Source of the DNA: Escherichia coli
GTDB taxonomy: Bacteria > Pseudomonadota > Gammaproteobacteria > Enterobacterales > Enterobacteriaceae
Length of the DNA: 64,000 nt
Reading direction: 5' to 3' (one strand)
Assembly (NCBI RefSeq): GCF_013315695.1
Contig: NZ_CP054353.1
Under the pieces are notes generated by a model. The model was not told where the DNA came from and searched no databases. It saw only the letters and a list, made by a program, of their open reading frames with translations. Position 1 is the first letter of the stretch; each line of letters begins with the position of its first letter. Positions 23,554-28,412 of the stretch are shown here, one piece after another. The position numbers and the translations under genes are program-made.

Positions 23554-23592
23554 AAAACCCCGTTTGTTGGCACCAAGCGGGGTTTTGTGTTT
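23554..23592 (+). terminator. Intrinsic terminator downstream of the endolysin
   Basis: aaaaccccg / cggggtttt stem around a 15-nt loop, followed by ttttgtgttt. Confidence 0.5.
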
Positions 23593-23619
23593 CTGACCTT
23601 GAGTAAGGCAAGGGAGAAC

Positions 23620-23802
23620 ATGGCGAAGTATAAACGAATTCTGTTGAGGTTGACTATGAAAAACGGCCTTGAACTGAAAGCGCCTGTAACTGATGACATC
23701 AGCAGAGCACTGGCTTTTGCCATTAAGTGGGTGGCGGTCGGTGTTGCTGTGTCCCCGATGCTGTATGGGCTGGCAAAACTGGTCATTGCGTTGAAATCAT
23801 GA
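23620..23802 (+). CDS. Small protein with C-terminal TM helix, 60 aa
   Basis: [72 protein letters not shown]. Confidence 0.4.
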
Positions 23803-23816
23803 AGGGAGGATTAAGC

Positions 23817-23948
23817 ATGCCAGACAAACTCATAACGCTGGCGAAGATCCTCTGTGTAATTGTCGGCATTTCATTTTCACTAATGCTGGTTGCTCTTTTT
23901 CTTTCCATGGCCTGGATGATGTTGTCTTCGTCGGGGTTGCTGGGGTGA
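23817..23948 (+). CDS. Small hydrophobic protein, 43 aa
   Basis: RBS GGGAGG 7 nt before [46 protein letters not shown]. Confidence 0.4.
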
Positions 23949-23959
23949 ACATAAACCGA

Positions 23960-24418
23960 ATGCTTTCCGCGTTTATCGTTATTCTGCTGGTGGCCTGTGG
24001 TGCGCTGTGGATGGCAACAGACCATTACCGTGATAACGCGATTACCTACAAAGCGCAGCGCGATAACAAAGCCAGTGAACTGAAGCTGGCGAACGCAACC
24101 ATTACTGATATGCAGGTGCGCCAGCGCGATGTTGCTGCGCTCGATGCAAAATACTCGAGGGAATTAGCCGATGCGAGAGCTGAAAATGAAACTCTTCGCG
24201 CTGACGTTGCCGCTGGTCGTAAGCGCCTGCGGATCAACGCCACCTGTCCAGGCTCCGTGCGTGAAGCCCCCACCACCTCCGGCGTGGATAATGCAACCGG
24301 CCCCCAACTGGCAGACACCGTTACACGGGATTATTTCACCCTCAGAGAGCGGCTGATGACGATGCACAAGCAACTGGAAGGGGCACAGGACTATATCCGC
24401 ACTCAGTGCCTGAAATAA
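23960..24418 (+). CDS. Rz: i-spanin Rz
   Basis: [65 protein letters not shown]..., closely lambda-Rz-like. Confidence 0.85.
24171..24356 (+). CDS. Rz1: o-spanin Rz1, lipoprotein embedded in Rz in the +1 frame
   Basis: [51 protein letters not shown]; lipobox VSAC, Pro-rich. Confidence 0.8.
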
Positions 24419-24728
24419 GTTTTGTTGATGCGCCGTATCGTCGCTATATTCCCTCATTAACAGAGACCGCAGCCCGACAGGGAGACTCCTCTGCGCGAGT
24501 GTGCGGGGATAATTAAAAACGATGCTCACCGGGTTTTTACCGCGTTAATGATTCGCGGGTTTATCCCGGTGCGATGGTGGAAGAAACAGGAAGCTGTATT
24601 ACAGAAAGTGCTACTACTGTATCCCGATGCGATGTATGTAATGTGAGTCAGATAATGGCACAGGATGTGGTGATGTGGCAGTCTGGAACACAGGATATAT
24701 TGTCAGAATAAGACCCGTAGGAATAAAA

Positions 24729-25055
24729 ATGAAAAGACGCCTTTTACTACTTTTTCTGTTATCTGTCCTGGCAGTGGGATGCTCGCAGCAAAAAGCTGAT
24801 GAGCCCCGGCAATTAGTGACGGTGTATCCACGATATCCGGAATATGCTGCAGCAAATTATATCAAGGGGCTGGTTGAGGTTAAGTTCGATATTGGTGCTG
24901 ATGGGACTGTGACACGGATCGTTTTTCTCCGCTCAGAGCCTCATAATTTGTTTCGTGATGAAGTGGTGAAGGCCATGGCGAAATGGCGATTTGAAAAGAA
25001 TCGCCCCTGTCAGGGAGTGAAGAGACAATTTATCTTTACGCCGTCACGTCCCTGA
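24729..25055 (+). CDS. Lipoprotein with TonB C-terminal-like domain, 108 aa
   Basis: MKRRLLLLFLLSVLAVGCSQ (lipobox) then VTVYPRYPEYAAANYIKGLVEVKFDIGADGTVTRIVFLRSEPHNLFRDEVVKAMAKWRFE; RBS AGGA. Confidence 0.65.
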   Translation: MKRRLLLLFLLSVLAVGCSQQKADEPRQLVTVYPRYPEYAAANYIKGLVEVKFDIGADGTVTRIVFLRSEPHNLFRDEVVKAMAKWRFEKNRPCQGVKRQFIFTPSRP

Positions 25056-25177
25056 TGCTTCCAGGTAGAGAGGGGCTGGACGCAGGAGAAAAATGAAAGA
25101 GCCAGCGGTTATATTTTTGTCATGGCTGACGAGGAATGATGGAAGAAGGCGTTGTATGCCACACAACGCCTCACTGT

Positions 25178-25670
25178 TCATTTCTTCTTTTTCTCTGGTG
25201 GAACCCGATGAATAAGAGTTGCACTGGTTTCCGATGAGATGGCGATATACTCGGGCAAAGTATGCTGGCAGTTTTCCAACTGGTCAAAAATACCTGCTCT
25301 CGTCTGTTGCAATGCCTGCAGCATGCGGCGGCAATGCGCCTTGCTTTTACTAACCATCTTTCCTTCCTCTATCAGTCGCTGCGTGAACTCATCATGTAAT
25401 ACCAGGTAAATGCGGATGTTATCGGTTTTGGCTACGCAGCATAGTACAAAACGGACAGGTGCATCCCGGGACGGGGGAGGCGTCACATGTCCCTGTGATG
25501 GTTGTTCCGGGTAATGCACTGTGTGGGGCATAAAAATGTCCGATAATTTTACTTTCTACCGCAGTTAGTTGATTCGTTGGTCCTGGTAGCACATTGGGCG
25601 AGGATTTAAATGCCAGGCAACTGAAGGATGATGTTGCAAGGGAGATAGCGAGAATATTTCTGATTTTCAT
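25178..25670 (-). other. Reverse-strand coding region in two overlapping frames (25419-25670 with signal-peptide-like start MKIRNILAISLATSSFSCLA; 25178-25531); possible frameshifted gene or two overlapping genes
   Basis: Two ORFs of 84 and 117 aa overlap by 113 nt; function unknown. Confidence 0.35.
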
Positions 25671-25817
25671 TTGATGATGCCTCTGTGTGAAATGACGGTA
25701 AACGACGCACTTGTGCCGGCACATAATAGCAAGCACCATAATAGATCAGATTCGATTCTTGCTGTAAGTGATAATCATTCTCGTTTTCGGGTCCTTTCCG
25801 TCGATCCAACAGGTTAC

Positions 25818-26013: not shown

Positions 26014-26523
26014 GTGGCTACGCAGACTGAAGTTGCCAGGCATTTAAGTCTGACCGATCGCCAGCTTCGCAGATTGCAGAAATTGCCGGGTGCCCCGATA
26101 TCGAATAAGCGAGGGCAACTGGATCTGGATGCCTGGCGCGATTTTTACATATCGTATCTGAGAAGAAGTAAAAACGATGTGCCTGATGGCGATAGCGAAG
26201 ACGACTATGAGGAGAAATTGCTTATTGCCAGATGGGAACTGACAGCAGAACAGGCTGTTACACAGCAGTTAAAAAATGAGGTGTCAAAAGGAAAACTTAT
26301 TGACACCGGGTTCTGTATTTTTGCCCTCAGCAAGCTGGCAATGGCGTTATCCAGTACGCTTGATTCCATCCCTTTATCCATGCAGCGACAGTTTCCTGAT
26401 TTAACACCGCGCCATCTTGACCATCTGAAAACCCTTATTGCGAAGGGGGCAAATCAGTGTGCGCGGGCGGGGGATAAATTACCGGATTTACTCGATGAAT
26501 ATATCAGAGCAACAACTGAATAA
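26014..26523 (+). CDS. nu1: Terminase small subunit, Nu1-like
   Basis: GTG start; C-terminal half TGFCIFALSKLAMALSSTLDSIPLSMQRQFPDLTPRHLDHL... resembles lambda Nu1. Confidence 0.8.
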   Translation: MATQTEVARHLSLTDRQLRRLQKLPGAPISNKRGQLDLDAWRDFYISYLRRSKNDVPDGDSEDDYEEKLLIARWELTAEQAVTQQLKNEVSKGKLIDTGFCIFALSKLAMALSSTLDSIPLSMQRQFPDLTPRHLDHLKTLIAKGANQCARAGDKLPDLLDEYIRATTE

Positions 26524-28412
26524 TATGATGAGTGCTGTCACAACAGCATTACAGCCCCTGATAAGGGCATTGCCGGTGACGCCAGTTGAATGGGCTGATC
26601 AAAATTATTATCTGCCTAAAGAATCTTCATATGGTGAGGGAGAATGGAAAACGCTGCCGTTCCAGATCGCCATCATGAACAGCATGGGGAATGATCAGAT
26701 CCGGACTGTTAATCTGATTAAATCTGCCCGTGTTGGCTATACAAAGATGTTGCTGGGGGTGGTCGGGTATTTTATTGAGCATAAATCCCGAAACAGTCTG
26801 CTTTTTCAGCCCACGGATTCTGCCGCTGAAGATTTTATGAAGTCTCACGTGGAGGCGACGATTCGGGATGTGCCATGTCTGAAAGACCTTTCTCCATGGC
26901 TGGGGCGTAAACATCGTGACAATACTCTCACGCTGAAACGCTTTTCATCGGGTGTGGGCTTCTGGTGCCTGGGCGGCGCTGCCGCCAAAAACTACCGTGA
27001 AAAATCCGTGGACGTGGTCTGCTATGACGAACTTTCCTCGTTCGAACCGGATGTCGAAAAAGAGGGTTCGCCAACCCTGCTTGGGGATAAACGTATTGAG
27101 GGCTCTGTATGGCCCAAATCCATTCGCGGCTCGACGCCTAAAATCAAAGGCACCTGCCAGATCGAAAAAGCGGCCAACGAGTCGGCGCATTTCATGCGTT
27201 TTTATGTGCCCTGCCCGCACTGTGGGGAGGCGCAGTATCTGAAATTTGGCGATGAGTCCACGCCTTTTGGCCTTAAATGGGAGAAGGACAGCCCCGAAAG
27301 CGTTTTCTACCTCTGTGAACATCATGGCTGCGTGATCCATCAGTCTGAGCTTGACCAGAGCAACGGGCGGTGGATCTGTGAAAACACGGGGATGTGGACC
27401 CGCGACGGTCTGACGTTTTTCAGCGCTGCGGATAATGAAATTCCGCCGCCGCGCTCCATCACATTCCATATCTGGACGGCGTACAGTCCGTTCACCACCT
27501 GGGTACAGATTGTCTATGACTGGCTGGATGCACTGAAAGATCCCAACGGCCTGAAAACCTTTGTGAACACCACGCTGGGCGAGACCTGGGAAGAGGCCGT
27601 GGGCGAAAAACTCGATCACCAGGTGCTGATGGATAAGGTTGTGCGTTACACGGCTGCGGTGCCTTCCCGGGTGGTTTATCTGACGGCGGGCATTGACTCG
27701 CAGCGAAACCGTTTTGAGATGTATGTCTGGGGATGGGCTCCGGGAGAGGAAGCCTTTCTGGTGGATAAAATCATCATTATGGGGCGTCCCGATGAGGAAG
27801 AGACGCTGTTACGTGTGGATGTGGCGATCAACAAAAAATACCGCCATGCAGACGGAACCGAAATGACCATTTCCCGTGTCTGCTGGGACACCGGGGGGAA
27901 TTGTCTATCAGAGGTCAAAAAAACACGGTGTTTTCCGGGTGCTGCCGGTAAAAGGTGCATCTGTTTATGGCAAGCCGGTGATCACCATGCCAAAAACCCG
28001 CAATCAGCGGGGCGTGTATCTGTGCGAAGTGGGGACGGACACCGCAAAAGAAATTCTCTATGCCCGTATGAAAGCCGATCCCACGCCTGCGGATGAAGCC
28101 ACGTCGTATGCCATCCGTTTTCCTGATGATCCGGAGATTTTTTCGCAGACAGAGGCGCAGCAACTGGTGGCGGAAGAGCTTGTGGAGAAGTGGGAAAAAG
28201 GAAAGATGCGTCTGCTGTGGGATAACAAAAAGCGGCGTAACGAAGCGCTGGACTGCCTGGTGTATGCCTACGCGGCATTACGTGTGTCCGTGCAACGCTG
28301 GCAGCTTGATCTGGCTGTACTGGCAAAATCCCGGGAAGAAGAGACGACCCGGCCAACCCTTAAAGAACTGGCAGCGAAGCTGTCCGGAGGAGTGAATGGT
28401 TACAGTCGCTGA
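26495..28412 (+). pseudogene. A: Terminase large subunit gpA, interrupted by a +1 frameshift near 27893-27900
   Basis: N-terminal 466 aa (MNISEQQLNN...ISRVCWDTGG) and C-terminal 170 aa (...IVYQRSKKHGVFRVLPVKGASVYGKP...) both lambda-gpA-like but in different frames; junction at ccggggggaattg. Confidence 0.6.

Follow-up and report, generated by a model that had tools for sequence, protein, structure and literature searches.

What would a prophage gene that supplies the C-terminal domain of TonB, behind a lipobox and without the rest of TonB, do for its carrier? This question is raised by a small open reading frame (ORF) at positions 24729-25055 of a 64,000-nucleotide (nt) stretch of Escherichia coli DNA (NCBI RefSeq assembly GCF_013315695.1, contig NZ_CP054353.1), here called the window. 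The gene has already been annotated publicly, and the novelty lies only in the function proposed for it. We found that its product, referred to here as the TonB_C lipoprotein, is a member of the TonB_C domain family and not a TonB energy transducer. We tentatively suggest that it may block TonB-dependent uptake as a dominant-negative TonB domain tethered to the outer membrane, a possibility that we take seriously while regarding it as short of probable.

The TonB C-terminal domain and its lipobox

The gene and the parts of its product are located as follows.

24729-25055, plus strand: coding sequence of the TonB_C lipoprotein, 108 amino acids (aa), with ATG at 24729 and TGA at 25053-25055
24719-24722, plus strand: Shine-Dalgarno sequence AGGA, 6 nt 5' of the ATG, where the phage 21 record annotates a ribosome-binding site
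24729-24782, plus strand: predicted lipoprotein signal peptide ending in the lipobox L-A-V-G-C18, from the sequence and comparison of homologues
24783-24803, plus strand: predicted tether SQQKADE, seven residues from the lipidated Cys to the folded domain; the predicted local distance difference test (pLDDT) value of the AlphaFold2 model climbs from residue ~21-26
24804-25043, plus strand: TonB C-terminal domain, residues 26-105, equivalent to TonB 153-232, from profile, alignment and fold

The protein matched Pfam PF03544 (TonB_C) with an E-value of 9.1e-13 over model positions 2-67 of 79, and its score against NCBIfam TIGR01352 (47.4 bits) passed the curated threshold of 27.1 bits. In a phmmer comparison with the PDB, residues 24-103 aligned without gaps to residues 151-230 of E. 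coli TonB (1U07, 1XX3, 2GSK and 2GRX), and the identity to TonB 150-235 was 38% over 86 aligned positions, again ungapped. An AlphaFold2 model built from 28 sequences had a pLDDT of about 97 throughout the domain and showed two helices packed against a three-stranded sheet, an arrangement that could be superposed on solved TonB C-terminal domains. These domains (1u07, 2gsk_B and 2grx_C) were the best Foldseek matches, with template modelling scores of 0.91-0.92 and root mean square deviations of 0.9-1.5 A, and domain III of TolA followed far behind, in a second tier. The protein keeps the YP motif, G186 and all five aromatics (F180, F202, W213, Y215 and F230 in TonB numbering), and the beta3 edge strand is intact in the model (residues 94-103).

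The whole protein consists of the lipobox, the 7-residue tether and a single complete TonB C-terminal domain that ends at the equivalent of TonB residue 235. It shares Pfam and TIGR domain and fold with the C-terminal domain of E. coli TonB (approximately residues 150-239), and its mature form of 91 aa is near in size to the 92-residue fragment crystallised as 1U07. However, E. coli TonB has a transmembrane (TM) helix, a Pro-rich rod and coupling to ExbBD, whereas the phage protein has neither an N-terminal TM anchor nor a proline-rich spacer and appears to be anchored by a lipid instead. The NCBIfam TonB equivalog models NF008081-84 were not reached (at most 69.2 bits, with the cutoff at 315 bits), and the matches to them were confined to profile positions ~150-240 (best: 156-240). 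Viral structural relatives were absent from BFVD at E <= 1e-3. No family of the PADLOC-DB defence models matched at E <= 1, and we rejected a known anti-phage defence system on this result.

An alternative form of the ORF, starting from GTG at 24675, encodes 126 aa and matches the form in UniProt Q1RCX6. We rejected this start in favour of the ATG at 24729, which is used in the phage 21 and RefSeq annotations, because a hydrophobic signal has to stand at the N-terminus and all homologues start with MK[RK]. From this ATG, the protein begins with MKRR and 12 hydrophobic residues, followed by L-A-V-G-C18 with Ser19 at position +2, so that MKRR-LLLLFLLSVLAV-G-C18 fits the PROSITE-type lipobox pattern in its generally known form. 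The lipobox Cys is kept in all nine phage-type homologues, which share 38-85% identity with the window protein, and the tether is 7-8 residues long across the phage homologues. The +2 residue is Ser in the window protein and Thr or Ala in the homologues. Since a lipoprotein with Ser, and no Asp, at +2 is expected in the outer membrane under the +2 rule, Ser19 predicts sorting of the TonB_C lipoprotein to the outer membrane. A first-pass annotation of this DNA, made from the letters alone, had claimed a TonB C-terminal domain to be confirmed by profile searches, a classical lipoprotein signal and a ribosome-binding site of the gene's own. The two profile scores above threshold, the N-terminal sequence with its invariant Cys, and the AGGA at 24719-24722 bear out these claims.

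Spread, selection and position of the gene

The same DNA occurs in phage 21 with 98.4% identity, where the gene is CPT_21_73, 'TonB C-terminal domain protein'. The gene is also present in phages ev017 and Perceval ('TonB fragment') and in several ECOR-derived phages, and the RefSeq entry is WP_000830178.1, 'TonB family protein'. None of the record sources that we checked gives a functional name for the protein, and a full-text literature search found no functional study of the gene. A 2024 review of superinfection exclusion, which covers Cor, Imm/Sp, Rex and others, includes no TonB-like protein. Among 5426 complete E. coli genomes, the gene was found in 1224, with at least 99% identity in 1202 of these; Nissle 1917 and ST131 isolates are among the carriers. 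A second allele with 70% protein and 73% DNA identity, known from JLK-2012, Lys8385Vzw and Stx1a phages, was found in 415 genomes of the same set. More distant homologues (39-47% identity) occur in a Klebsiella phage and in a prophage on a Salmonella plasmid, each with a lipobox and a 7-8-residue tether.

The ratio of nonsynonymous to synonymous substitution rates (dN/dS) between the two alleles was 0.13 (dS 1.37, dN 0.18), and that of the domain alone was 0.11. The 108-aa ORF was intact in 80 of the 80 IMG/VR loci retrieved. These values indicate that the gene is maintained by purifying selection and is not a relic.

In every locus, the gene lies on the late strand directly after the spanin genes, and the small terminase gene (TerS) is 3' of it wherever the retrieved contig reaches far enough. 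This placement is constant in four backgrounds: the lambda-type TerS, the HNH plus HK97-type TerS, the Klebsiella type and the Salmonella GH19/DUF2514/P27-TerS type. In the window, Rz is complete at 23945-24418 (phrog_13), and so is Rz1 at 24171-24356 (phrog_3198), a classical Pro-rich o-spanin lipoprotein embedded in Rz in the +1 frame. The cos site (the right genome end of phage 21) maps to about 25818 and TerS starts at 26014; the gene is accordingly located between Rz and cos, as had been stated from the sequence alone.

PHROG 1267, which is labelled 'Rz-like spanin', matched the TonB_C lipoprotein over its full length at 5e-43. We rejected a spanin assignment, given the complete Rz/Rz1 pair upstream in the window and a separate Pro-rich o-spanin lipoprotein, whose gene lies within the i-spanin gene or overlaps it, in each of the four contexts that we examined. 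Because each context has its own o-spanin, the label is wrong for the function. A C-terminal TM segment, which is a trait of u-spanins, is absent from the TonB_C lipoprotein, and the protein is not Pro-rich. The members of PHROG 1267 that we examined were TonB_C lipoproteins beside spanin pairs, and the label looks like an annotation error inherited from position and lipobox.

The gene behaves as part of an accessory cassette. Between shared flanks, a segment of 653 nt that includes the gene in JLK-2012 corresponds to 246 nt in YYZ-2008. The GC content of the gene is 47% and that of its third codon positions 44%, compared with 54-55% and 58-59%, respectively, in Rz and the large terminase gene (TerL). 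Homology between the two alleles extends from ~300 nt upstream to exactly the stop codon, and the sequences downstream are unrelated. In phage 21, the gene of the lysogenic-conversion lipoprotein Bor neighbours the TonB_C gene and occupies the same accessory slot. Bor/Iss of lambdoid phages is likewise encoded by an accessory lipoprotein gene in the interval from Rz to cos, although on the opposite strand and with an unrelated protein; Bor has a role in serum resistance and its own promoter. A link to the receptor of the phage itself, as the logic of self-exclusion would have it, was not supported. The C-terminus of J in the window is 53% identical to that of lambda J, the J types vary between carriers, with identities of 65-71%, and no cor-named gene is listed by RefSeq for the closely related prophage of strain GE3. 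The TonB_C gene is therefore not obviously tied to the phage's own receptor.

Possible function and competing explanations

Siderophores, vitamin B12, many phages, colicins, microcins and 'Trojan-horse' antibiotics all depend on the TonB system as their single energy gate, and native TonB docks by adding the TonB box of a transporter as a strand beside beta3 (structures 2GSK and 2GRX). Having no TM anchor, proline-rich rod or link to ExbB/ExbD, a TonB_C lipoprotein cannot transduce energy. The lipid anchor and the 7-residue tether would hold its domain within a few nm of the periplasmic face of the transporters, where it could lower TonB-dependent import by either of two routes: it may occupy the TonB boxes of the transporters through beta-strand addition to its beta3 edge, or it may trap the scarce C-terminal domain of native TonB that reaches the outer membrane. 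Lowered import would make the carrier less sensitive to agents that need energised TonB, which would include T1/phi80-type phages, group B colicins, several microcins and sideromycins, at the cost of poorer uptake of siderophores and B12. The binding partner, the time of expression and the phenotype given here for such a decoy are what we infer.

There is laboratory precedent for this interpretation. It had been proposed in outline in the first-pass annotation, and we consider it reasonable and partly supported. According to a preprint (bioRxiv 10.1101/2020.01.05.895219) and to Howard 2001 as cited in PMC9841981, the periplasmic TonB fragments 33-239, 103-239 and 122-239 inhibit the activity of the TonB system. 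Such fragments block ferrichrome transport; one study credits blocked contact between TonB and the transporter, and later work adds a disturbed interaction between ExbD and TonB. Since soluble periplasmic fragments inhibit TonB-dependent transport, a tethered, energy-dead TonB head is a plausible dominant-negative. The engineered fragments likewise deliver a TonB C-terminal domain to the periplasm without the energy-coupling part; however, they are soluble, overexpressed, longer and made as signal-peptide fusions, whereas the phage protein is natural, shorter, divergent and lipid-tethered, probably to the outer membrane. We also modelled the domain, a G30 linker and FhuA residues 1-20 as a single chain. 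Exactly the TonB box DTITVT was predicted as a beta strand and the linker was disordered, at a pLDDT of ~59 in a control-free model, which weakly favours binding of the TonB box.

A comparable action from the periplasmic side is known for Llp of T5 and Cor of phi80, N15, HK022 and mEp167, outer-membrane lipoproteins of one family that inactivate FhuA. The TonB_C lipoprotein resembles them as a small phage lipoprotein that is predicted to be in the outer membrane and proposed to act on TonB-dependent transporters from the periplasm. Similarity to Llp/Cor was not found among the PHROG, NCBIfam and PDB-fold matches, which were all of the TonB type, and the earlier claim of a fold different from Cor/Llp holds. 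While Llp acts allosterically on one receptor, a TonB decoy would hit the shared coupling step, and so many receptors.

Several observations weigh against a simple mimic of TonB at the TonB box. TonB residues R158, Q160 and R166 are known as receptor-contacting residues or as suppressors of TonB-box mutants, and in the phage protein they are replaced by T, Y and Y, respectively; the equivalents of R204, K207 and R211 are also replaced. The family of short proteins has conserved residues of its own, Y39, N43, S69 and K99, the last being a Lys on beta3 in place of TonB V226. In an exhaustive search, the scores were 83 bits for P0041 and 75 bits for P0050, compared with ~57-60 bits for TonB-like sequences. 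These two are short lipoprotein TonB_C proteins encoded chromosomally beside ahpCF/GST or Usp/acetyltransferase genes, outside phages, and such closer relatives in non-phage contexts suggest that the fold may serve another native partner. The transporters vastly outnumber TonB, so a decoy for TonB boxes would need high expression. Nissle 1917 and ST131 rely on siderophore uptake, and the presence of the gene in siderophore-dependent strains argues against strong constitutive inhibition. Expression in the lysogen, which the proposal would require, gained no support from a two-hexamer scan, which found no sigma-70 promoter on the plus strand, or from a terminator scan, which called no terminator on that strand. 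The gene has the orientation of the late operon, and the layout by itself implies no expression other than late expression.

These points lead to an explanation that we consider possible, if on balance doubtful, namely that the same fold serves a different partner. Candidate ligands would be peptidoglycan, some other beta-strand motif in the periplasm or a single specific protein of the outer membrane. In that case, the prophage copy would serve lysogenic conversion by altering an envelope property, as Bor does, without general inhibition of TonB. Such a role is consistent with the closer relationship to the chromosomal lipoproteins, with the family-specific residues, with the position in the bor slot and with homologues of 108-129 aa in many Enterobacterales; the high prevalence in iron-dependent commensals and pathogens also fits a low-cost function. 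On the other hand, no alternative partner is known, the beta3 edge and the fold match those of TonB at ~1 A, and the single-chain model makes a strand of the FhuA TonB box. Short TonB_C-only proteins are in fact widespread in Enterobacterales and other Gammaproteobacteria under the names 'Protein TonB' and 'TonB family protein'. With 105-135 aa, they have the same order of signal/lipobox, tether and one TonB_C domain and share the motifs SEPxHLFD and G-[MLV]-x-K-x-[IVLF]-x-F with the phage protein, and some of them are chromosomal without phage context, unlike the prophage gene. To our knowledge, none of them has been characterised, so they offer no functional clue.

The constant position on the late strand, directly 3' of the spanin genes in four lysis/terminase backgrounds, would also be expected of a late-gene accessory of lysis or egress that is transcribed only with the late operon and acts as the lytic cycle ends; it might close TonB-dependent receptors, so that superinfection or loss of progeny is limited, or aid disruption of the envelope. 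The scans that found no clear independent promoter or terminator agree with this, as does the label of PHROG 1267. Nevertheless, we regard this explanation as unlikely: a complete i-spanin and a separate Pro-rich o-spanin are present in every context, the protein has neither the Pro-rich character nor the C-terminal TM segment, and close relatives such as YYZ-2008 lyse without the gene. Moreover, TonB-dependent adsorption needs energised cells, so blocking adsorption on debris gains nothing. Far less probable still is an inert leftover, that is, a captured fragment of host tonB without function, as the annotations 'TonB fragment' and 'partial tonB-like' in ev017, Perceval and CP-933N would have it. 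We rejected such a pseudogene on the basis of the dN/dS value, obtained across alleles 27% divergent in DNA, and of the 80 intact ORFs; a lipoprotein signal has been acquired and kept, and an identity of 38% to E. coli TonB shows that the gene is not a recent tonB fragment.

It is conceivable, if rather doubtful, that nature has produced an 'energy-coupling decoy' in its broadest form, in which a dead TonB head under the outer membrane throttles every TonB-dependent transporter at once. If so, such a lipoprotein would be present in about one quarter to one third of E. coli strains, and a very common prophage gene, present in Nissle 1917 and ST131 carriers, would modulate the TonB system. Carriers would trade iron uptake for survival and gain broad, receptor-independent protection against TonB-dependent phages, group B colicins, microcins and siderophore-antibiotic conjugates. 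This would be a principle of exclusion or bacteriocin resistance distinct from receptor masking by Llp/Cor, and a new variant of phage exclusion lipoproteins. It would bear on the efficacy of sideromycin-type drugs and on susceptibility to siderophore-drug conjugates, and would influence host range in phage therapy and bacteriocin competition in the gut. Even if the decoy interpretation is wrong, the gene marks an uncharacterised, lipid-anchored TonB_C family with another periplasmic partner.

Flanking sequences and neighbouring genes

Three features flank the coding sequence.

24601-24728, plus strand: cassette-specific upstream region, common only to gene-carrying phages
24701-24709, plus strand: TGTCAGAAT, an extended -10-like motif and candidate promoter of the gene's own, TGT(C/T)AGAAT in both alleles
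25147-25171, no strand assigned: G+C hairpin GGCGTTGT-7 nt-ACAACGCC with a stem of 8-9 base pairs (bp), not a canonical terminator

The first-pass annotation, confirmed almost entirely in other respects, had called the gene a moron with a terminator-like hairpin at about 25140-25200. Presence in some phages and absence from others, together with the low GC content, agree with a moron; the expected promoter and terminator of its own were not found by the scans, and the designation is half-demonstrated. The stem of the hairpin is real, 92 nt after the stop codon of the TonB_C gene and 6 nt beyond the stop codon of a convergent ORF (25178-25357). However, it is not followed by an adjacent U-run, was not called as a terminator and is absent downstream of the second allele, and the folding z-score of the region was -1.45. 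Its nature as a terminator was thus not upheld.

The motif TGT(C/T)AGAAT lies 20-33 nt before the ATG, and the leader between it and the ribosome-binding site differs by a 13-nt indel between the alleles. Transcription from this candidate promoter might allow expression in the lysogen. An annotated 45-aa ORF that overlaps the region (24574-24711) is not conserved as a protein in allele 2. Upstream of allele 2 (L005, JLK-2012, 3466-3484), a perfect 7-bp inverted repeat, GAATAAG-A-CTTATTC, overlaps the -10-like motif. It agrees with the consensus of the Fur box in 13 of 19 positions, a score that just 19 positions in the 64-kb window reach. The repeat is only suggestive of a possible operator, perhaps an iron-responsive one. 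Its right half is removed by the 13-nt deletion in allele 1 and in the window, where the best upstream match to the Fur box was 11 of 19, a background level at which we rejected Fur regulation.

Further upstream, a noncoding element of ~170 nt (24429-24600, plus strand) lies just 3' of Rz and is ~90% identical between the allele contexts, compared with 73% for the TonB_C coding sequence. Parts of it were found in 402 phage records, mostly of lambdoid or Stx phages, in which they follow either Rz or bor and the TonB_C gene may be present or absent. Within the element, an invariant CACCGG...CCGGTG stem encloses a variable hairpin; a few compensatory changes were seen, and covariation was negligible. 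The element had no match in Rfam, and its folding z-scores of -1.5 and -1.3 were not significant. We also rejected its identity with a known small RNA: AsxR and AgvB sit at the pR' site, and the Pas-sRNA preprint makes no mention of the region. In phage 21 (L001, 3496-4000) and some IMG/VR loci, bor, encoded on the minus strand, and its promoter region separate Rz from this conserved element. The bor gene is absent from the window and at least 20 other loci, in which Rz abuts the element directly (24419-24428 in the window).

On the other side of the gene, two minus-strand ORFs travel with allele 1. The one at 25178-25357, convergent with the TonB_C gene, encodes 59 aa (phrog_4843, WP_000253883.1). 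The other, at 25419-25739 and 5' of cos, encodes 106 aa with no family match, and translation from the internal MKIRNILAISLATSSFSCLA looks signal-peptide-like. Note that the annotators of phage 21 called small plus-strand ORFs between the TonB_C gene and cos instead. Between the endolysin gene and Rz lie two further small ORFs, at 23587-23802 and 23727-23948, which makes the lysis cassette unlike that of phage 21. Finally, TerL (within 26438-28412) is apparently frameshifted at ~27879-27898 and appears as two overlapping ORFs; residues 1-468 of the GE3 TerL (642 aa) align in one frame and residues 466-642 in the next. This may reflect either a packaging-defective prophage or a sequencing error, and the TonB_C gene is intact either way.

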